Shown here: positions 3,151 through 52,130 of the stretch, one piece after another
Layout of the letters: each line of letters begins with the position of its first letter
How positions within the stretch are numbered: the first letter of the stretch is position 1
From: Phallusia mammillata
Taxonomy: Eukaryota
Assembly (NCBI GenBank): GCA_965637545.1
Contig: OZ281496.1
Span: 13,454,001-13,518,000 of the forward strand
DNA: 64,000 nucleotides
Direction of reading: 5' to 3'
The notes under the pieces: model-generated
The model's input: the letters and a program-made list of their open reading frames with translations, nothing else
Database searches by the model: none
What the model was told of the DNA's origin: nothing
Program-made: the position numbers and the translations under genes

Positions 3151-4573
3151 TTGCTACTGTCTCTTCAAGTTAAATATTTTCTTTTGATTTAAACATTGAA
3201 TGGATTGAGCTCTGCTTTTTGGAATCGCGATTTCCGGTTCTCCACTGCTCTTTTGTTTGATCTGATGCTTGAATTCCAAATATCTTAGTAAATTGTAGCC
3301 ACCACTCACGATTCTCTCTATTACCACTTGAACTCTGCATGTTGATTTTACAGTAATCTCAGATGTAAACGTGTTGGTTTGACAAGTAACAAGGATATTA
3401 TCATGACAACACAGTCAAATGACAAAACCGCGCTAAAAAATGACCTAAAAACTTTTCGCTTCTTTACTCCCATAACTATTAAACAACGGATTGCACGTCT
3501 CAGAAATTTTCGGTGTTACATCTCCACGTTAAGTTCAAAATGACTTGTCTCACTGTTCCCCCTGTTGTGACGTTACAATCGCAATGTGCGTAACGGTAAA
3601 ACAGAAATACCATTGTCTGCATATTGCAATAATTGGGTTAATTTACTGTACAGCATTAAGTAAATTCTTCTGTGTTGCATTTTTAGACAGGACCGAATAT
3701 TCGGCCATGTAGCTGGCCAACAAATCTAGCAAAAATTCAACAGATAACGTCACTAAATAAATAAATTTGATTAGGGAACAAATTTCACAGACGGCAGTGT
3801 TAAGTATTAACCAGCAAGTTCATGATGATGATGTTCATTATAATGACAAAGAGTACGAACATGTTATTTCAGAAGAATTTGCACCTGGTCTTGGAAACAA
3901 GTATCGCTAGAATGTAAATCGAAACTTAAAAAAATGGTATAACTTTGGAAGTAGGAAATCTTAAAAGAGTAAACCTGGTATAATCTTTAACCACAAATTC
4001 TATGCCTTCATTTGGTTATTTAGTTACAACCACGAAATGCGACATTAGCCGAAAGCAGAGGCTCCTATTTGAAAATAATATTTCGCTAAAGTTCCAATAA
4101 ACGAAAATGTCGGTGCCATCTGAACGCAGATTCAGTGATGGAGTTCCATGGCAAATTAAAGATGGACCAGAGATAGAAAAGAAGGCTCTACCATATTCCA
4201 TGACGTAGCAATTCTCGGGGAAACTACCTACGTATCTATTAATCAAGACATATATTTAATCGATACTTTAATGGTAACGGTAACACAGTATATTCAAACA
4301 AAAACACCGTTACCGCAGTGACGTAATGGAAAAATACTGAGGTAATGGTCACGCACTGTTGTGCAGCTACATGCCGTTACTGTTACCGACAGGGTTGCCA
4401 TCGACTTAAAACCAAAAAAGTTTATTTTCATGCTGACAAAACAAACGTTTTTGAACAAATCTTTGCATTTGTACGAGCCATGACATGTCATATGCAATAT
4501 TTTGGCCAGAAACAATCTTTTGCAACTACTTGTTTGTAGAAAATACTTCGTGAATCTCACAAGAGCTTAGGTC

Positions 4574-40799: not shown

Positions 40800-41734
40800 T
40801 CTTAGATGGACAAGACATTATTAACAAATTTACCTGGTTTGCACTTCAACTTGATGCCTCTGACGTAAATATGCACAAGGAATGATCACGAGAAACTTAC
40901 ACATAATATGGTACAGCACTAGTAGACAGATTAAAAGATTAACGTATAAACAGCAAGTCGAACGAGTTTATTTGTTCGAACAATGCCTTAGTTTAAAACG
41001 TCTACAAGTGTTACTTTTTCACGGCATTCGAAGCCGTACAATCCAAGGACGAATCCCATTTTTTTTCAGATTATAGTCTTTTTCAGCAATGGTGGCACAA
41101 AACTCTTTAAAACAAGAAAAATTCTCCTTTTCCGATTGTGCCTCGAACAATGACAGCTTTCTCCGAAACGATTTGCTAATTCTGTGAAGGTCACAGACGA
41201 GGTTCAATACCTATCCTGAAGTTAAATTTAAAATCAGTTCGATTTAAAATCAGTTCATTCATATAAAATGTGATATCGACCATGAATGCTAACTTTGACA
41301 GCCAAGTAGGATCGGAAAACTACGAATTGGCTCTGCCTTTTTCAGACAAGGAACGATATTGTTGGACTTGTGTATAGTAAGTTTCTTTTTTATCGGGAAA
41401 AACTTTTTATAAAAAACACATAATTAATATGTGTTTGTATACACAACTGGTTTCAACAACGTTGTAAACAGTCATTATTACGTCGTTTGCGTCATAATAA
41501 AGGCAATTATTACGTGCATTCTGCTGAAAGCTTCTTTTAGAGTACCGTAGTCTTCTCTGCAAGTATTGGTAGTTGACATGTTGCTGAAATAACTAATAGA
41601 CATTGTGTTGCTTACAGTTAATGTAGTAAATTATATGTTTTATGAATTGAAATTTACTAATGTTATCGGCTTATATCTTATCATTAGACGTCTTGGTATT
41701 GCTTATTTCATAATTTTTGAACCTTAAATTTATT

Positions 41735-44401
41735 ATGAGTAAAAGATTTGAAAGTGGAGCTAGCAAGCGCAAGAAAAAGAAATTTGAAAATGATATGCTA
41801 AAGAAGATAAAATCAATCACTGCTTTCATGCATCAACCTCTGACAGAAGCAACAGGTGCTGGCAGTGAAGTAGGTGCCTTGACGCTATCACAAGAAAATC
41901 AGTGTAGCGAAGCTGATCAGCCAACTACTAGCATTCGACCAGAAGAAAGTTTTACAGAAAAAGCAATGCAGGACGTTGAACAGCAACCTGGTAATGAGGA
42001 AGGAGACATTCCCAGTGAAAATGAAGTTACAAGTATATTTCAAAACTCAGTTGCTGCAAAGGGAGGGGAAAAAGAAACACATCAAAGTAGTGGGGATAGT
42101 CAAAATTTTCAATTCACACCTAGTGAAGTAGATCAGTCCCAAAGTATTACAGATACTTATGCAGATGATGCCGAACATAGATCTACACATACACTGAGTT
42201 TAGAGGACGTTGGTTTGTGGAAAAAATTATCAAATGAAGAAATAGCCTACTGGATAGAGAGAGGCCCTTCTGAAGTTCAGCACAGTAGTGGTCCATTTTC
42301 TAGTTCCAAACGAGTGTACAAAAAGCAATCCAGGTTTTGCACAAAAACTCTGTTTTTTGCAACGAAAGTCAATGGTGAAACATATAGCAGAGAGTGGCTT
42401 GTATATTCCCCCGCAAAAGGACGCGTATATTGCTTTGTTTGTAAACTCTTTCCAAATCATGCATCTTCTTCGGCTTTAGCAGCTGATGGTTTTGACGACT
42501 GGCACAACTCTCATCTTATCCAAGCTCATGAAAACTCAGAAAAACACACAAATGCCATGTTAACCTACCTAACAAGGAGGCGAGGATATACGCTTACTTC
42601 AAAGCTGGAGGAGCAAATAAAAGCAGAACAGCAGTATTGGTGGCATGTAATGGAAAGAATCACCGCTGTAATTTGTACTCTTGCAGAACGAGGCCTACCT
42701 TTTGGAGGGGACAATGAACGATTTGGATCTCCTAATAACGGCAATTATCTTGGTCTTTTAGAACTAGTGGCTAAGTTTGATCCATTTTTACTTGCTCATA
42801 TCAATCGCTATGGAAATTCAGGATCAGGAAATCCCTCTTATTTGTCAAAAACTATTTGCGAAGAGATGATTCAGCTCATGGCCAAAAAAGTTAAAGAGTC
42901 AATTGTGGCTGACGTAAAAAAATCGGGATATTTCAGCTTTTCTGTGGATTCTACTCCCGATATTTCACATACCGATCAGTTAACTTTGATTATCAGATAC
43001 GTGTCTCCTGTAAACGGTTTACCAAGTGAGAGATTCATAACTTTTCTTGAGCTGAAAGACCACTCTGGGGTAGGCATGGCAGATTTAGTGCATAAATATC
43101 TCACTACTGAGCTTCAGCTTGATTTTAATAAATGCCGAGGGCAGTCTTACGACAATGCTGCAAACATGGCTGGTAGATACAACGGTATGCAGCAAAAAAT
43201 CCTAGAAAGAAATAAATTTGCAAAATTTATTCCATGCGCAGGTCACTCCTTAAATTTAGTAGGCCGCTCAGCTGTTGATTGCTGCCTTGATGCAGTGAAC
43301 TGTTTTGGTATTATCAATGAAATTTACACTTTTTTTTCGGGTTCCACAAAGAGGTGGGCAGTTCTAAAATCATTTTTGCAACCTCATTCTAAAGTGCCAA
43401 AACATTTGTCAGATACTAGGTGGGATGCACATGCAAAAGCCACGGAAGCTATTTTGGAAAGTTACAGTGCCATCACTAATGCTCTCAGTCATTTGCACTC
43501 CAATGTAAGTGAGAAGGGTGATACCAGACTTCATGCTAACAACCTTTTACAAAAAATGGAAAAATTGGAATTTGTGTTTATGTTGCATTTTTGGTCCAGA
43601 GTACTAGGTCGTTTTCACAGGGTTAGCAAAGCCCTTCAGAAATCTGTATTGTTATTAAGTACTTGTGCCGAATTGTACAGTTCATCTGTAGACTTTCTAA
43701 GCGAAATTAGAGATGAGTTTGACGAGTTTGATCAGAAAGCAAAAGCAACCTTGCCGAATATTAACTACAGAGCTGCCACTAGGAGACAAAGAAATGCACC
43801 TGACGCTTTAAGTGAACTCTCTTCAAAGGAGAGGTTTAAAATAAATTCCTTTATCCCTATGCTCGACGCACTTGAAACCAATTTAAAAAGAAGAGCTAGT
43901 GTATACAGTGACATTGCAGAAATGTTCCTCTTTCTTGCTAATCTGAAAGCAACTAAGGTAGAAATTGTACGAGGCGTAAAACTTTTAAAGGAAGCGTATC
44001 CGGAAGATGTTGACCTGAAACTTACTGATGAACTTCTACATTTTCATTTGTACGTGAAACAAACACAAAACCAAGGGCTTACCGGTACAGAAGAGCGATC
44101 TGTTTGCTTGTCTCATGCAGACCTCTATGAAATTATGTGCAAGGAAAAAATTAACACTGCCTTTCCTAATGTGGAAGCAATATTAAGACTGTTTCTTAGC
44201 CTAATGGTCACTAACTGCTCAGGAGAGAGATCTTTCTCAAGGCTCAAAACCATCAAAAATAAACTGAGATCGACAATGTCCCAAGAAAGGTTGTCCGCAC
44301 TGAGCATTTTGTGCATTGAGAGTGACAAACTTAAACAGATAAATTTTAATGAACTTTTGCATGATTTTGCTTTGACAAAAGCTAGAAAAATTTTTGTTTA
44401 G
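41735..44401 (+). CDS. hAT transposase (TTF-finger/DUF4371/ZMYM1-like), 888 aa from ATG, uninterrupted
   Basis: REWLVYS..YCFVC, VDSTPDISH (D1), SYDNAANM (D2), CAGHSLNL, DTRW, VTNCSGERSFSRLK (E). Right TIR ATCCGGCCCTG ends at 45832; no left TIR found. Confidence 0.92.
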   Translation: MSKRFESGASKRKKKKFENDMLKKIKSITAFMHQPLTEATGAGSEVGALTLSQENQCSEADQPTTSIRPEESFTEKAMQDVEQQPGNEEGDIPSENEVTSIFQNSVAAKGGEKETHQSSGDSQNFQFTPSEVDQSQSITDTYADDAEHRSTHTLSLEDVGLWKKLSNEEIAYWIERGPSEVQHSSGPFSSSKRVYKKQSRFCTKTLFFATKVNGETYSREWLVYSPAKGRVYCFVCKLFPNHASSSALAADGFDDWHNSHLIQAHENSEKHTNAMLTYLTRRRGYTLTSKLEEQIKAEQQYWWHVMERITAVICTLAERGLPFGGDNERFGSPNNGNYLGLLELVAKFDPFLLAHINRYGNSGSGNPSYLSKTICEEMIQLMAKKVKESIVADVKKSGYFSFSVDSTPDISHTDQLTLIIRYVSPVNGLPSERFITFLELKDHSGVGMADLVHKYLTTELQLDFNKCRGQSYDNAANMAGRYNGMQQKILERNKFAKFIPCAGHSLNLVGRSAVDCCLDAVNCFGIINEIYTFFSGSTKRWAVLKSFLQPHSKVPKHLSDTRWDAHAKATEAILESYSAITNALSHLHSNVSEKGDTRLHANNLLQKMEKLEFVFMLHFWSRVLGRFHRVSKALQKSVLLLSTCAELYSSSVDFLSEIRDEFDEFDQKAKATLPNINYRAATRRQRNAPDALSELSSKERFKINSFIPMLDALETNLKRRASVYSDIAEMFLFLANLKATKVEIVRGVKLLKEAYPEDVDLKLTDELLHFHLYVKQTQNQGLTGTEERSVCLSHADLYEIMCKEKINTAFPNVEAILRLFLSLMVTNCSGERSFSRLKTIKNKLRSTMSQERLSALSILCIESDKLKQINFNELLHDFALTKARKIFV

Positions 44402-44419: not shown

Positions 44420-45593
44420 CAGGGGTTCCCAAACTTTTTTAGTCTGTGGCCCAAACAGGCCCCACGAGAGGGGGTGCAGCCGGTGCGCCGCACCGGAGCC
44501 CATGAGAGTCTAGACTGTCAAATGTGTACGTGTTTTATTATCGTTTTAAAACCGAAAAAAGTTAAAGCTAATTGTCGAATGTGGATTTGTTTTAGTGCAA
44601 CTCTATGCTACACGCTTCGTTGCGCATTGCACAACAATTTTTTGATCGTTACGTCGGCGCACACGCGAATTGTATAGTGATCTCTTTTCGGTGCCGTTCC
44701 AAGTTTTTTTGTGTGTCACAGCTGTGTTCGTTATTTAGTAAGGATTTGCAATGTCTGACACATTGGTCTATTCTGAACACTTGGTTAGCTTAAGTTCATG
44801 GTACTGTGCATTTTGAAGGTCAAGATTTTGTCTCTTACTAATGTATGTTGTTTGTCCGTCGTCTTGATACTTTGCTTTGCTGTCTTGTGCATAGCCATCC
44901 TATATGTGCTTAGTGTATATCTGATTGCGACTATGTAACAGATGATTGTGTTGGCTGTACAGGGCAAGTGTTTCTGCACATTCCAGGTCTTTATAATGGC
45001 ATATGCTACACGTATTTGATTGGGTCACATCTTTGCTCAGGGGTGTGCATCATGCGGCCACAAAGACTAGTGTGGCCGTGAAAATGATTTTGTGGTACTG
45101 AAAATAGTAGCCATATGCGTCAGACTTTTTGCATATCTATTGTGTGTGAACAATGCGAAAAAAACAAACACCACAAGCGTCACAATAGAGAAGATGACGT
45201 CTTAAACAGTTACGACTGGTCTTCACACTATGGAGCTCATATCTGATCTTTTGGGGAAAATAAGGTTTTGCGTTTTCCATTTTGCTAAAGTTTAAACAAC
45301 GACAATTAGTGTTCAAAAGGGGGCCCGTAAATTGACTTTCACCAGCATATTCTTTTTCTCTCAAGGGCCCTGGCCCCAAATGTCTATATAGTAGTGATTC
45401 GTGGCTCACCACGTGCAGATAATTTGGGCACAAACAAAAGAAAATTAAATAAAAAACAGGCGAAATGGTTTCTAGCAATTTAATTTCTACAGTTTAACAA
45501 ACCAGTAGAATCTGTTCAAATGACTCTGTGGCCCATTGCAAATGTCTTGGTGGCCTAGTACTGGGTCATGTGCCCACAGTTTTGGAACCACTG
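44420..45593. mobile_element. hAT MITE inserted in the 3' end of the ZMYM1-like element
   Basis: CAGGGGTTCCCAAAC / TTTGGAACCACTG. TSD CTCTATTT at 44412-44419 and 45594-45601. Confidence 0.9.
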
Positions 45594-45839
45594 CTCTATT
45601 TGATGGCTATAACTATTTCTTAAGTCCTCGTAACTAAACTTTACAATTATTGTAACGATTGTTTGATCAAAGAAATTAAAAGCAAAACTGTCTAAATTTT
45701 TATTTTTTTAATTAAAAATTTGCACCCACGGATGTGGAAAATGCTGTATAGAGAGAAATTCTGAGCTCAAAAAAGGGAGGGGCCTCACAAATGGAATAGC
45801 CTAGGGCCTCTCATGGTCTAAATCCGGCCCTGCTCAGTA

Positions 45840-46917
45840 TCCAGGAACTAAAAAAAATTGGCAAAAAATAAACGCAATTAATAAAAGAAAGCAAGCAGCC
45901 AGAGAAGCAGCTCAGTCCCAACAAACAGGCGATGAAGAAGGACCTTAAAAAAACAGAAGAACGACGAAAAACAGAAGAATCAGAACGAGAAACTGAATCT
46001 GAAAGTGGAAATAATAACGAAGACAATAGCAACGATATGCAAGCTGATACTACCGCAGAAGACATGGGGAAAGTGGGTGTTCATAGGAGAACAACTAGTG
46101 GAGGTGGTAGCGGTGGGCCTGGAATATTGGAGCATAAAGTAGTAGCAAACTGTTTAAGCTCTGGATATAACAGCATCACCCAGAAAATTTATCAAAGAGA
46201 TCATTTAGCAATTAAATCACACCAATGGGTACAACCAGAAGGTGCATCATCACCAGTAGCAGAACCAGGACCTTGGAGAGACTCATACGGGAGTGGACAA
46301 ATATATGAATGTCCAATACATGACTTCGGACTAAAATTACCAACAGCATCAACAGACAGAAATGGAAGAACCAAAATGATGCCATGGCAAGACTACAACC
46401 CACTTCAATACTTCAGAGTGAGATCATTGAACATGAAATTATTACATCCGGGACAGTTTACAGCACCAGGATCAGCAAGTCATCTGCCCATCATACGGTT
46501 AAATATATGGCAAAATAAGCATCAAACAAACGCTGGAGTACCAGGAGTTCGGCATTGGGATTGAACTCCACAACAATCAATGACAATATTAACAGAACCA
46601 GGAGCTATGAGTCACAGACTTGGAATTCATGGATTTAATATAAAAATACAGCAGAAACAATCCCATCAAGTAGATGTAGGAGAAGATGGCAGTGCAGGGT
46701 AAACATCAGAACTGATGCAGATAGATAATAATAACATACCGTGGTACAGAACAGAAGTAAATGGTGTAATTGTGAAGTCATGTTGAATTTAGAAGTATTT
46801 AGACATACAGTGCCTAATGAAACATTAACCAGTGCTACAGGTATGACATTTAACTTTCCAGTTGAATATACCTGGATAATAGACTTTAAAACGCCTAAAC
46901 CATATGCACGTGAATAA
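45840..46917 (+). pseudogene. Putative ssDNA-virus capsid-like gene
   Basis: A-rich frame with a Gly-rich SGGGSGG, PWQDYNPLQYFRVRSLNMKLLHP (like the YRIxxVxxK..P strand of jelly-roll capsids) and terminal VEYTWIIDFKTP..*. In-frame stops and one frameshift; AATAAA at 46939. Confidence 0.55.
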
Positions 46918-47039
46918 CAATGTATATAATATTGTATTAATAAAAATTGTAATCAGTTAACAAAAAGTGTCATTATGTTCACAGCTAAGAGATTGTTTAA
47001 TCCTAAAATAACATTTATACTGAAAATAAAGGAAAGGAT

Positions 47040-48880
47040 CCGAAGAAGGGCTTACAGAATCTGGCAAGAAAGCCAAGCAGAGTATAGAAGAGAAAAAGCT
47101 TTACGAGCAGGGTTGCCAGGTGGCCTAAAATTCGGACAAAAAACGATAAATTGGCCTAATTTCACCTGCTGTATCCGACGCCTAAAAATCATTAGGACAT
47201 TTAGTTTTTTGTCCTAATATGTCCGAATTTTGCTATATGTCCGAAAATCCTATTTTTTGAAGGTTGCAAACCTTTTTTACGACAAAACGTGTCTTAAAAC
47301 TGCAACTTGTTTTGGTTAGTGCCTTGTTTATGACGTTAAACACATAATTGTCTGCCATTGTTGTGTACAATGCTATTGTATAAATGGTTATCTAAGGTGA
47401 TATGAAGCAACAACTTGACGAAACAGTTTTTAACGTTGCTAAACCAATGATAAACGCTACAGCAACGTGTTTCAATTACCGACTAAATATTATTTTAAAC
47501 ATGTCATTTTTTTGTCAAACATAGGAAGTTTGTTATGTTTTACGTCCGCCACATTGTATGTTTGTAAAACTCGCTCTTATGAGTGTGGGGAACGTAAGCG
47601 CACAGAAATGGCAGTTGGCACCTCGATATTGATACCTTGTTTGCAATTATACGCTCTAGTTTTTTTTTCCTAAAATGTCCGATTTTCAGACAAATATTGT
47701 CCGAATCCAGTCGACACTATCTGGCAACCCTGTTTACGAGAATGTAAATATAATCTCAGAGATACGATCCAGAGTATGGGCCTTTACGACAAAGAGCAGA
47801 GAGAATATTGCAACACATGGACATAAAAACAGAATATCTTCAACCAGTAAAAAACAAAGTAGAGTATGTGAACTATATGTGGAAACAACAAAGAGATGAA
47901 TTACCAGAAAGTCTGAAAAGATGGATACAACACTGGGGAGAAAAAGGATCAAGCTTCAGTAACGAAGATCAGTTCATACAAAATGGATATAAAAAGTTCG
48001 GAAGTAAACCAACAAAAAACGAATGGTCCAAATATTTAACTGATAAATTTGGTCTAGGATATTCTCAAATCAAAATAAACAGAAGTTACATTAGTTGGCC
48101 AAAAACTTCAAGTAATAATCTACAAAGTATATTAGGAAGACTAAAAAAAGACAAGCAAAGCCAATGTCAGGACAGATAGCCATGAAAGTGTTCAATGACA
48201 TCTTAAACAACATCAAAATCGGAAAAACAGAGAACTCCATACTAAACCGTGATGAAATAGAACTAGCACTGATATATGCAGCCCTAGAAGGACGCACTGA
48301 AGATATAGAACTCAGTAAACACCTGTTAATGGAAGGAGATGCTGGAGCAGGCAAAACTACATTAGTCAAAATATTATTCCCAGATAATATAGCATCTACG
48401 ATGCCAAATGATGCAAAAGGCGTCGGTCAAATGAAAATGGCAACAGGGCATAGAGTTCTAAAAGTTGATGACGCAAGTGATGCCTTCTGGCAAAATTTAG
48501 AAATACTAAGCGCAATCTATACAATGCACCAAAACAGTTGGGAAGCCAAAATCCATTCGTCGAAACAGAAAAATGCAGCAACAATGGCAGTAATTACATC
48601 CAACAATATTCATAACTTAACAAGGATTGCAGAAGTCTGCGACTTAAAAGATGCCAAACGAAGATTCACAGTATTAGAATTTCACGGAAAATTGAAGATG
48701 GAACAACGTTACAAAATTGGAGCATATACAGGCGAAGAATTCCATGAAACATGGCTTAGTTCATTTAAATTTAGAAAATTCAACATCAATTGTCCACATA
48801 TTAAAGATATATATATGAGAGTATGCAAGCCATTACATCAGAAGAAGAAGATGACGTCAATGGTAACGATGAAATATTAG
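47040..48880 (+). pseudogene. HUH endonuclease plus SF3 helicase Rep/NS1-like gene, interrupted by a MITE and frameshifts
   Basis: HGH at 47816-47824 (motif II-like), YVNYMWK at 47865-47885 (motif III-like), Walker A GDAGAGKT at 48335-48358, Walker B VDDA at about 48464, motif C VITSNN at about 48590, RRF at about 48660. Confidence 0.8.
47108..47732. mobile_element. hAT MITE (same ends as the 14525 element) inserted in the viral-like Rep region
   Basis: TIR CAGGGTTGCCAG / CTGGCAACCCTG. TSD TTTACGAG at 47100-47107 and 47733-47740. Confidence 0.93.
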
Positions 48881-49269
48881 AAGAAGATCCCGTTACCGAA
48901 GACAAAGAAGAATGCGTTACCGTTACCACAAGTCTATTGGAAAATTTAGAAAACGCAATGAAAGATAATGTGATCAACCATCAACATCGATAGAGCAACA
49001 AGCACAAGAACAAGAACTTGACGATAAGAGCAACAAGAACAAGAACTTGACGATATATTAGCAGCAGCATGCATAGAGTTAGAAGACGGTTGGACTTCGG
49101 TCAATCCAACATACTTGAATCAAGTGACGAAGGATACGAAACAGATCCCGATAGTGACGGAGAATACGAAGAACATCAACACAGAATCGCAAGTTATCAA
49201 CTCAGCTGTGCAGTGCAACCATACGACGACAGAGCAGAGCCCTCATTTAGTGGAGCAGTACCCCTACAA

Positions 49270-51883
49270 CAGGGTTGTCCAAACTTTATGGGACGCGGGA
49301 CGCATTCGGCAAGGAAATTAGATCGCGGGCCGCAGTTTACATTTTTCCTCTTATACACTGTCTCACCGTACCAGATGTAAAGTAAAACACGTACATGTGT
49401 AAATGAATCTTTATATTTATCATAAAAACATATTGGGGAATAGATTAAAGAAGCTAAGATGTGAATACTACGAATAAGAGAGTTTTGGAAATTTTGAGCA
49501 ACGTCAGTAGACCAGGAAACCTTAAAAATAACTGACAAGTATGAATAAGAAATTTATTCGTAAAAAATATTTAAGGAAGTACGTAAAACGGTACAGTTTA
49601 CTTAAAATTCAGTGAGATGGGTGTGCCTGTATTTTGGAAGCCAGCTCCTTTGTGTCAATGTCAACTGAGGTTAAGGCTAAACGAAGGGAGGCTTCGAGAG
49701 ATGTTTGTTTAAGTAGATTCCTCTCTTTGGATTTAATCGACTTCATTGCGGAAAATGCTGCTTCACAAAGGTAGGTACTGCCAAACATTGACAGCAAGTG
49801 CAATCCAAAACGGCGTAAATTAGGATAATGCTCTTCAGAAAGAAGAGGCCAAAATTGAGTGTTTGGCAGTGTAGCTTTGCTTAATAAAAACTGGTCACTT
49901 TGCAAGTCACACAATTCAAGCTGCAAATCGTCATCGGCTTCTGATATAGTTATAGTCAGCGGAGCATTGAATACATTGAAGTTTTTCTCAAGGTGCCGGA
50001 AATCTTGAAATCGCTTGTTGAAGTCTTCAATTAGGGTATCAAGAGTTTCAACAAAGCAGCAGAAGTTATTGTCCTCTATTTCTTCAGAAATAACGTCACA
50101 ACTTGGAAAGTGAATCAGAATGTTACTTTGCAGATTACTTTTGAAGAGACATAATTTTTTGCGGAAGCCATCTATGAAACCATACAGAGAAGCAATTGTT
50201 TGATTCCTACCCTGTAAACTTAAATTGAGCTTATTCAGATGCTGAGTAATATCCGTGAAAAATGCTAGACCTTTCAGAAAGTTGACGTCTTGCAATAAAC
50301 CTTTAAACCCATCAGTGTCTGCATTCAGTTCTTCTAAAAAGTTTAGAATCTCATTACGCAGACTGAAGAACTGCTGCAAACATTTCCCAGCACTAAGCCA
50401 ACGAATAGTAGAATGGAGTGAAACGTCAGAAAATTCTGTATCCAAATCTTTCAAGAAATCAACAAATAGACGATGTCTCAGCGCTTTATTACCGCCTCTA
50501 ATGAAATTAATAATTTTCATTACATGCTGCATCACATCAGATAAACGTATACAGCGACTAGATAACGATTCTTGATGAATAATGCAATGAAGCATTGGGC
50601 AGTCGACTCCAGCATCTCTCAAGTACCCTATAACCCCTCTTTTAGCTCCAGTCATTGATTTGGCACCATCTGTAACGATACAAGAGCATTTCTGAAATCC
50701 ACCATACTTGCTCACTAAAGAATTCAGCGCTTCATAAATATCAGATCCTTTCGTAGTGGTAAAAAGTGGGAGTAAGCCGAGTAACTCCTCACTGACATTA
50801 AACTGTGAGTCAATACTTCTAATAAAGACAAGCAACTGGCTGACATCCCTTATATCTGTGCTTTCATCAAGAGCGAGAGAAAAATAAACACACTGCTGAA
50901 TTTGATTCATGACCTTCTCCTGAACGAAATTGCTAAGCTCTTCAACACGTCTAGCAACAGTTTGATGCGAGAGTGGAATTTTTTCAAACCCACGAGCTGC
51001 ATCGTTAAAGCCCATGGCCTTTCCCATAGCTATTGCACATCGCTTAATGAGATCACCGTCAGAGAATGCCTTTTTGGATTTAGCCATCAAAAGTGATACA
51101 TCATAAGAAGCAATGGTTGTAGAAGACAAAGGCTTCACTAATTGAAACATGTTTTCTTGACGCTTACGCAGGTTTGATTTGAGATCATTGAGTAGGGCTC
51201 GCCGCGCCTCACCAGTGTATTTATAGCCAGTGACATGAAGAGTGCTGTAGTGTCGTTGTACATTGTACTCTTTCATAACAGATATCATTTCATTACAAAT
51301 TAAACATAAAACTCGACCACTTTGTTCTTTCACCAGGAATCTCAATTCCCAACTATCCTTGAATTTACGTTTTTCATCAGAGATTTTTCTTTTCTGAGCC
51401 ATCGTAAAAAATGTGGCACTTAGTCTGAAAAGAAAGAATAAAACAGAATGTAATGGAGGATTAAGTAAAACTGAAATTATAAAGAATATTCTCAGCATAA
51501 AGCACACAGCCAATATTGCAGAAAACATTTTATTTAGAAATGCCTGACGTTGGGAGATAAACTTTTCTCATTTTCAAAGGCTACATTGTACCGGTTAGGG
51601 TTGGGCTAAACTGTTGAAAACTAGCATAAGACGTACGAGGCAGAAATTTAAGTTACGTAATAAACAATAACAATGCCTCTTTACCATTGTATTCATACTT
51701 GGTTGTTATGTCACTTATATGCGGATTTTTATAAATTTACCATTTTAAGGTTGTTTTTCTAGGGTCGGCTTATATGCGAGGATATACGGTAATTTTTAAA
51801 AGTTTTCTAGAAGAGGCGGCGGGCCGCATTGAAGGAGGTCGCGGGCCGCATGCGGCCCGCGGGCCAGGCTTTGGACAACCCTG
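49270..51883 (-). mobile_element. Full-length hAT (GTF2IRD2/EPM2AIP1-like) DNA transposon
   Basis: TIR CAGGGTTGTCCAAA at both ends. TSD CCCTACAA (49262-49269) / CTCTACAA (51884-51891), one mismatch. Confidence 0.93.
49609..51402 (-). CDS. hAT transposase, 597 aa from MAQKRK, uninterrupted
   Basis: CLIC..RHYSTLH, ALDESTDIRD, VTDGAKSM, HCIIHQ, IRWLS, STYLCEAAFS. Confidence 0.93.
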   Translation of the reverse strand: MAQKRKISDEKRKFKDSWELRFLVKEQSGRVLCLICNEMISVMKEYNVQRHYSTLHVTGYKYTGEARRALLNDLKSNLRKRQENMFQLVKPLSSTTIASYDVSLLMAKSKKAFSDGDLIKRCAIAMGKAMGFNDAARGFEKIPLSHQTVARRVEELSNFVQEKVMNQIQQCVYFSLALDESTDIRDVSQLLVFIRSIDSQFNVSEELLGLLPLFTTTKGSDIYEALNSLVSKYGGFQKCSCIVTDGAKSMTGAKRGVIGYLRDAGVDCPMLHCIIHQESLSSRCIRLSDVMQHVMKIINFIRGGNKALRHRLFVDFLKDLDTEFSDVSLHSTIRWLSAGKCLQQFFSLRNEILNFLEELNADTDGFKGLLQDVNFLKGLAFFTDITQHLNKLNLSLQGRNQTIASLYGFIDGFRKKLCLFKSNLQSNILIHFPSCDVISEEIEDNNFCCFVETLDTLIEDFNKRFQDFRHLEKNFNVFNAPLTITISEADDDLQLELCDLQSDQFLLSKATLPNTQFWPLLSEEHYPNLRRFGLHLLSMFGSTYLCEAAFSAMKSIKSKERNLLKQTSLEASLRLALTSVDIDTKELASKIQAHPSH

Positions 51884-52130
51884 CTCTACAACAATGGAAT
51901 GGACGAGGACTCACAATTGTATTTTGCATGCGAATAATAATAACAGTGACATTTACCTGTACATGTGGCAATGAATATGGTCACAATTATATAATGTTCT
52001 GTGAATGTAAATATATTAATGGCGTTGTATCAATTGAAACTATATATGATCCTTTATAATTAATTTATATTTGTCGTTACCGTTATAATATAATCACATT
52101 TCCAAATATTTAAATTACAAAAGAATATAA

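Follow-up and report, generated by a model that had tools for sequence, protein, structure and literature searches.

In all parvoviruses, the NS gene lies to the left and the VP (capsid) gene to the right of a genome that is copied by rolling-hairpin replication (PMC11357303, cited in part). The parvoviral Walker B motif has the form xxxxEE (PMC9896142, in part), and six subfamilies are currently recognized (PMC13426907, in part). A mixture of capsid and Rep types has a precedent in the parvo-like hybrid virus NIH-CQV, or PHV, which joins a parvovirus-type capsid to a circovirus- or nanovirus-like Rep (PMC4419787, in part); PHVs are mostly reagent contaminants and their host is not settled (PMC13141889). 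Endogenous, multi-copy elements with open reading frames (ORFs) for NS1-like and phospholipase A2 (PLA2)-capsid proteins and a terminal hairpin include the acorn worm (Saccoglossus) parvovirus-like repeat, planarian PIVE/PEVE, and Hydra DENSOV_HM; the first of these, with more than 50 copies, was called a transposon (PMC3198968, in part). Circular parvovirus-like genomes have also been reported (PMC11071296, in part). For tunicates, the cited parts of two papers hold one Ciona expressed sequence tag resembling a protoparvovirus VP (PMC5013282) and an unsubmitted Ciona 'uParvo' contig among approximately 400 such entries (PMC11071296). We found no description of a capsid-first parvovirus-like group in the literature searched, with most subscription journals outside the search. 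Here, we analyzed a 64,000-nucleotide stretch of Phallusia mammillata DNA (contig OZ281496.1, positions 13,454,001 to 13,518,000; the window) that contains, between 45833 and 52110, capsid and Rep genes interrupted by hAT transposons.

Our data indicate, with a probability of roughly 0.68, that this locus is a decayed, transposon-broken genomic copy of the capsid and Rep genes of a small linear hairpin-ended single-stranded DNA (ssDNA) virus with capsid-first gene order and parvovirus-like replication. The virus-like DNA comprises three pieces, 3023 nt in total, parted by two hAT insertions. This agrees with the first-pass annotation of the stretch, which had removed two hAT elements to leave approximately 3 kb and had read the remainder as an integrated ssDNA-virus-like element with a capsid, an SF3-type Rep, and a third ORF. 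The same annotation described the remainder as uniformly A-rich, which applies to the first two pieces (plus-strand AT skew of 0.32 and 0.34, compared to -0.09 and -0.12 in the flanks) and not to the last piece (51892-52110), where a skew of -0.03 means that there is no A-skew.

All viral features of the locus lie on the plus strand. A capsid gene remnant that has lost its 5' part (45833-46917) encodes a basic helix, an acidic linker, a Gly-rich stretch, and a core of approximately 270 amino acids, and it is followed, as had been noticed, by AATAAA at 46939-46944, a candidate polyadenylation signal. The Rep/NS1-like gene starts at 46975-47107 with an internal deletion of approximately 60 nt, as judged by paralogue comparison, and resumes beyond the first insertion as a nuclease and linker remnant (47741-48166) with motif I at 47771, motif III at 47865, and a frameshift near 48142. 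Alignment to the paralogue shows that the motif II region has been deleted near 47806-47810. The SF3 helicase domain (48167-48880) contains Walker A at 48332, Walker B (VDDA) at 48464, motif C at 48590, and an Arg finger at 48656, and the pattern of frames and stops downstream (48881-49269) is that of a broken acidic Rep tail overprinted from 49069 by ORF3. The end of ORF3 and a 3' non-coding remnant without a terminal hairpin (51892-52099) share 73-79% nucleotide identity with the closest paralogue, L015.

The two insertions carry terminal inverted repeats (TIRs) and target-site duplications (TSDs), in line with the first-pass reading. The first (47108-47732; no strand assigned) has a 14-nt TIR with one mismatch and an exact 8-bp TSD, which identifies it as a non-autonomous hAT, and its second TSD copy extends it to 47740. 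The second (49270-51883, minus strand; to 51891 with the second TSD copy) has an exact TIR, a TSD with one mismatch, and an open hAT transposase frame (PF05699, PF18658). On its left, at 45832, the viral DNA is bounded by the right end of a larger, third hAT (45624-45832, plus strand; transposase at 41714-44401) with a nested miniature inverted-repeat transposable element (MITE) at 44420-45593, and this end adjoins the truncated capsid gene directly. Contigs covering the non-autonomous element have a depth several hundred times that of the viral part, which implies a very high copy number in the host, and contigs from other copies of the 49270-51883 element differ by less than 1%. The transposase frames at 41714-44401 and 49609-51402 are wholly open (895 and 652 codons from stop to stop), and judging by these frames the two hAT families may have been active recently.

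Contaminant viral DNA mis-assembled into the host would be an alternative source of such a locus, and contaminant chimerism in the reads had been named in the first-pass annotation as an observation that would refute it. Contigs of DNA runs X2 and X3 cross the MITE end, Rep, and the hAT start, and contigs of X2 and X4 cross the hAT end, the viral tail, and the host flank, in each case with 0-1 differences. These three runs are listed under three studies, one of which is possibly the source of the assembly. Together with host hAT elements whose TSDs lie inside viral genes and with the inactivating changes in the frames, these bridged junctions make contamination, for which we found no supporting point, an explanation of negligible probability. 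No joint representing an empty site across either hAT insertion was found in the contigs of four runs, from which absence cannot be proven. One run was guessed to be RNA, and its two short low-depth contigs on the capsid were not counted.

We found that Walker A, B, B', and C and the Arg finger are conserved across the Rep family, and A, B, C, and the Arg finger were located in the window, as expected from the helicase motifs listed previously. The YxxYxxK sequence at 47865, also pointed out before, is motif III of the family, with Y and K shared by 90% or more of the 33 Reps aligned; YxxYxxK by itself turns up in 13.5% of shuffles, and the H-x-H pattern in 66%. The HGH motif that had been proposed at 47816 proved to be an off-frame reading of the Rep codons QHMDI, and the true motif II belongs to a stretch of approximately 155 nt that is absent from the window compared to L015. 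Across the family, the nuclease region contains a conserved W, GxxE, HG, and YxxK. Motif II reads H-x-H in most lineages, x-A-H in the clade of the window, and x-x-H in approximately 10 outside relatives. The nearest ESM Atlas cluster to the helicase is Parvo_NS1/E1 (0.91), and its Atlas neighbors are SF3 families. Searches of PDB sequences with the helicase, the Rep profile, and the nuclease profile gave no viral relative above noise, an NCBIfam search gave nothing of use, and four weak PF01057 matches in the genome include none of these viral loci.

Helicase substitutions between the window and L015 number 12, 2, and 71 at the first, second, and third codon positions. The third ORF proposed in the first-pass annotation starts at 49069 and is open in both the window and L015. 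In the stretch shared with the Rep tail, both copies keep two frames free of stops, against 15 stops in the third frame, and substitutions fall about equally on the three codon positions (16/10/11). ORF3 opens with MHRVRRRLDFG (window 49069-49100; L015 6366-6400), a sequence similar to RxL cyclin-binding motifs, and an acidic stretch comes next. Overprinted accessory ORFs vary by lineage: one clade has an ORF of approximately 200 amino acids over the Rep 5' end (L017 4013-4651), and the metagenome clade has one of approximately 250 amino acids over the Rep 3' end (L059 2666-3415).

L015 is itself broken and shares 73-84% nucleotide identity with the window. Compared to L015, the window lacks the left end, approximately 200 capsid codons, and internal stretches of approximately 95, 60, and 155 nt, so that approximately 3.0 of 4.2 kb are kept and the earlier description of the element as a near-complete genome does not hold. 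Overall, nonsynonymous divergence (dN) between the two is 0.03-0.05 and synonymous divergence (dS) ranges from 0.6 to saturated. Since the differences lie mostly at silent sites, the window and L015 are likely to represent two viral strains rather than an in-host duplication. The window copy itself is a decayed endogenous copy that is now most likely inert, and it may possibly act as a source of small RNA.

The capsid remnant is interrupted by two stops and by two or more frameshifts, and it retains 83% nucleotide identity to L015 with a dN of 0.03-0.04 and a dS of 0.6-1.2. We regard it as a capsid gene because of its position, this purifying selection, a weak alignment to the PLA2-bearing capsids of sister lineages, and its Atlas neighbors. 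The sister-lineage capsids start with a parvovirus PLA2 (PF08398, E 4e-11), their best PDB match is VP1 of adeno-associated virus, and the capsids of the window's clade are linked to them by a weak profile match. A PLA2 in VP1 is typical of two Parvoviridae subfamilies and is not universal. Where sister capsids carry PLA2, the N-terminus in the window's clade shows a run of Gly and a hydrophobic segment that may be amphipathic (L015 2860-3540). Of 943 candidates returned by a homologue search with the capsid core of this clade, none was related, and with the capsid profile no PDB sequence rose above noise as a viral relative. Structural models of the capsid reached a predicted local distance difference test score of only 30.1 from a single sequence and 31.5 from a 24-row alignment, with ten strands and zero helices; modeling of divergent capsids fails similarly (PMC13426907, in part). 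The weak top rows of the structure searches, which included picornavirus and CRESS (circular Rep-encoding ssDNA virus) capsids, were not taken as evidence.

Beyond what the first-pass annotation could see, the window copy is one of dozens that fall into several clades. The genome contains 53 helicase matches and 37 sister-capsid matches, and the helicase matches were merged by hand into 43 places, 29 of which lie at C3 11.8-17.7 Mb and seven at C6 6.6-7.1 Mb. These two clusters are candidate PIWI-interacting RNA (piRNA) clusters. The window lies inside the C3 cluster and is rich in hAT, long interspersed nuclear element, and C2H2 zinc-finger sequence. In a quick tree without an outgroup, the clade of the window joins outside proteins, not other host copies. 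We examined host stretches centered on the gene match with approximately 5 kb to either side. In 40 of them, the capsid lies upstream of Rep in all 25 two-gene strands, one of which is a partial tandem repeat with an additional downstream capsid piece, and 16 strands are Rep-only; eight further stretches include five with both genes, all in the same order. Capsid-before-Rep order was thus found in 30/30 other host copies with both genes. A segmented genome, considered for the Rep-only strands, was dropped since these 30 copies join both genes by a short spacer. Retrocopied mRNA, considered as a general route for the A-rich 3' tails, was dropped since several copies continue past the tail into shared sequence.

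Given the high copy number, and the presence in 40 stretches of 12 with a Rep frame of 500 or more codons and seven with a capsid frame of 450 or more, we asked whether the copies form a self-mobilizing virus-derived transposon family spread in the host by its HUH nuclease, as the naming of the similar acorn worm element would suggest (PMC3198968, in part). The same long frames also suggest that some captures are recent. The ends of the host copies are ragged and differ from copy to copy, and neither of the two copies tested has a TSD beyond 5-bp chance matches. The helicase is of the SF3 type, unlike the SF1 type of Helitron-type transposons. Purifying selection between copies is strong and includes the capsid, and identical copies are segmental duplicates because they have common host flanks. 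Taken together, these data make a transposon family very unlikely. One such duplicate, a remnant of the same viral lineage at 4120-4389 of the window (plus strand), joins a truncated helicase end to a capsid-upstream region and is present in at least four places through a segmental duplication common to L040, L043, and L045. It had been considered as a displaced left end of the window copy, which was dropped since it belongs to this separate remnant.

Copies of different clades adjoin one another, including tail to tail (L017 2561-8943; L018, L033, L024; L030, L031), which suggests insertion hot spots or homology-aided capture. The largest host clade has a 46-nt hairpin with a GTACC stem upstream of the capsid, straight after the capsid stop, and straight after the Rep stop (L017 3997-4042 and 5953; L023, L024, L029, and others). 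Judging by their placement, these hairpins may be Rep-binding or termination sites.

A Rep profile search returned, at 50% identity, 88 clusters with a threshold of E 0.001 and 56 with 1e-10; 10 of the 88 were looked up, none was informatively named, and one had an NCBI record. None of 53 candidates from an IMG/VR scan was a relative. A metagenome scan recovered 20 loci at 35-39% identity, several with non-viral flanking DNA. The capsid-then-Rep order recurs in 12/13 two-gene strands of these loci, and the 13th jumps from the end palindrome into capsid codons. Eight of the 20 loci (six independent) carry a palindrome on the downstream side of Rep, in which 53-128 columns are paired. These end palindromes are 100-270 nt long, and the single one that was folded has a z of -26. 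An asymmetric bubble in L067, L068, and L074/76 is inverted compared to L057, L059, and L065/66, and the palindrome tip reads AAA or TTT, in either bubble orientation. Mirror (flip/flop) isomers of this kind are the product of hairpin-end resolution in parvoviruses. None of the six independent right palindromes runs into a capsid promoter. In a host copy, L091, a palindrome of approximately 120 nt (z -6.3) lies ahead of the capsid, and what comes before it is an inverted Rep piece and not a Rep 3' end.

These ends bear on a further explanation, in which the copies derive from a Rep-encoding virus with a circular, unisense genome, either CRESS-like or a circular 'parvovirus', that was linearized at its origin hairpin during integration. 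A circle would also fix the capsid-then-Rep order, and the first-pass annotation had favored it. It draws on the circular parvovirus-like genomes on record (PMC11071296, in part), a weak PF00910 match in 3/33 Reps (best E 0.001), a small capsid core close to CRESS clusters in the Atlas, a short inverted core common to both ends, and one Rep-to-left-end junction. In the layout of motifs I, II, and III and in motif style (W-x-F-T, YxxK, a Walker B of DD type, and an Arg finger), the family Reps also resemble CRESS viruses or papillomavirus E1. However, palindromes that reach 270 nt and occur with their bubbles and tips inverted speak against a circle, and the sole left palindrome, in L091, does not follow a Rep 3' end. 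In no copy does a capsid start follow a complete Rep, and 48 host stretches and 20 metagenome loci contain no intact Rep-to-capsid junction and one rearranged junction. The CRESS origin nonanucleotide is a TATTAC-type motif, and none was seen in the stem-loop loops inspected by eye. A linear hairpin-ended virus fits better than a linearized circle because the flip/flop palindromes behave as genome ends and never enter the capsid promoter, and we consider the circle unlikely. The element TGACGTCA, a CRE-like palindrome, recurs near both ends in distant lineages (L023 7548, L024 7857, L057 2535, L015 2602/2678/2734, and L091 6241), and a 13-mer is common to host left ends and the right ends of metagenome relatives.

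Several observations weigh against a linear hairpin-ended virus with parvovirus-like replication. The window copy and its own clade lack a long terminal palindrome; upstream of its capsid, the clade shows just a stem-loop of 43 nt, in which strains differ by paired changes. We infer the linear genome from integrated relatives at 35-45% Rep identity, only integrated DNA was analyzed, and no free virus was seen. The helicase/capsid-upstream joint of the duplicated remnant at 4120-4389 could come from a circle or a concatemer. The family Walker B is mostly DD, compared to the parvoviral EE, none of 33 Reps matches the Parvo_NS1 (PF01057) or Rep_N models at E 0.05, and none of 17 nuclease domains matches Pfam nuclease models, including PF02407. 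PLA2 is absent from the capsid of the window's clade, and comparison of this capsid with sister capsids gave a P of 0.009 and a probability of 4% in hhalign and an E of 0.016, above 200 shuffles, in another profile comparison. Its Atlas neighbors (0.94-0.96) are mostly Cressdnaviricota protein clusters, some with circovirus capsid domains, and the recognition score is under the threshold of the tool. Foldseek searches of PDB and BFVD with the capsid models gave no match at E 0.001, and the best VIA-align Z was 2.5.

Compared to known groups, the family shares with Parvoviridae a size of approximately 4 kb, a single strand that bears both major genes as well as overprinted ORFs, nuclease-type motifs with an SF3 helicase, and, in sister lineages or relatives, a VP1-type PLA2, a Gly-rich stretch, and flip/flop palindromic ends. 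The hairpin ends themselves were found in relatives only (8/20 metagenome loci and one host copy) and are lost from the window. Unlike Parvoviridae, the family is capsid-first with a DD Walker B, no Pfam NS1 match, and a capsid core of just 270-330 amino acids, and the window's clade has x-A-H for H-x-H and no PLA2. We did not file the lineage in Parvoviridae because its genes do not follow the NS-left, VP-right order. Resemblance to Cressdnaviricota is found in the Atlas position of the capsid core, and the differences are the absence of evidence for a circle or a nonanucleotide loop, the long flip/flop palindromes, a Rep of 550-690 amino acids, and PLA2 in sister capsids. NIH-CQV, compared by description, is a precedent for the capsid/Rep mix, whereas the copies here sit in an animal germ line. 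The acorn worm repeat matches Pfam Parvo_NS1, whereas the present family does not (PMC3198968, in part).

The proposal in the first-pass annotation of a lineage outside described groups is apparently sustained. More tentatively, at somewhat less than even odds, the copies stem from a family-level group, not yet described, of ssDNA viruses with linear, hairpin-ended genomes that infect tunicates, and perhaps other marine invertebrates, and that have capsid-first order, a small capsid with optional PLA2, and a Rep unlike both NS1 and that of CRESS viruses. The same tentative reading includes one Rep clade with a single metal-binding His, a position of the group between circular Rep-encoding viruses and parvoviruses, within the vertebrate sister group, and viruses that may still circulate. 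The 'uParvo' entries may already include this group (PMC11071296, in part). A tunicate host, also suggested in the first pass, is made likely by two cellulose-synthase-like genes with a QRxRW motif at C3:28483830 and C6:17812787 (L055 and L056). To our knowledge, tunicates alone among animals have a cellulose synthase gene.

In the linear hairpin-ended reading, Rep would nick and unwind DNA at terminal hairpins in rolling-hairpin replication. Repeated germ-line infection would have left fragments through non-specific repair, often rearranged at hairpins and without defined ends, with many viral strains captured independently of one another. The window copy would then have lost its left end, decayed, and been hit by hAT elements. 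It is a ruin, yet it points to a parvovirus-like lineage, apparently not described before, in which the gene order is reversed. Screens for viruses and endogenous viral elements (EVEs) have a blind spot here, since current Pfam models miss this Rep family and its 88 clusters (50% identity). Parvoviruses are said to have NS before VP without exception, an order in keeping with NS1 as the first product. If the present lineage is truly both hairpin-ended and reversed, it would show that this order is not needed for this replication mode. Furthermore, with dozens of variously diverged copies, one chordate genome preserves a fossil record of germ lines infected repeatedly, and allows a small-RNA defense derived from EVEs to be tested in tunicates.

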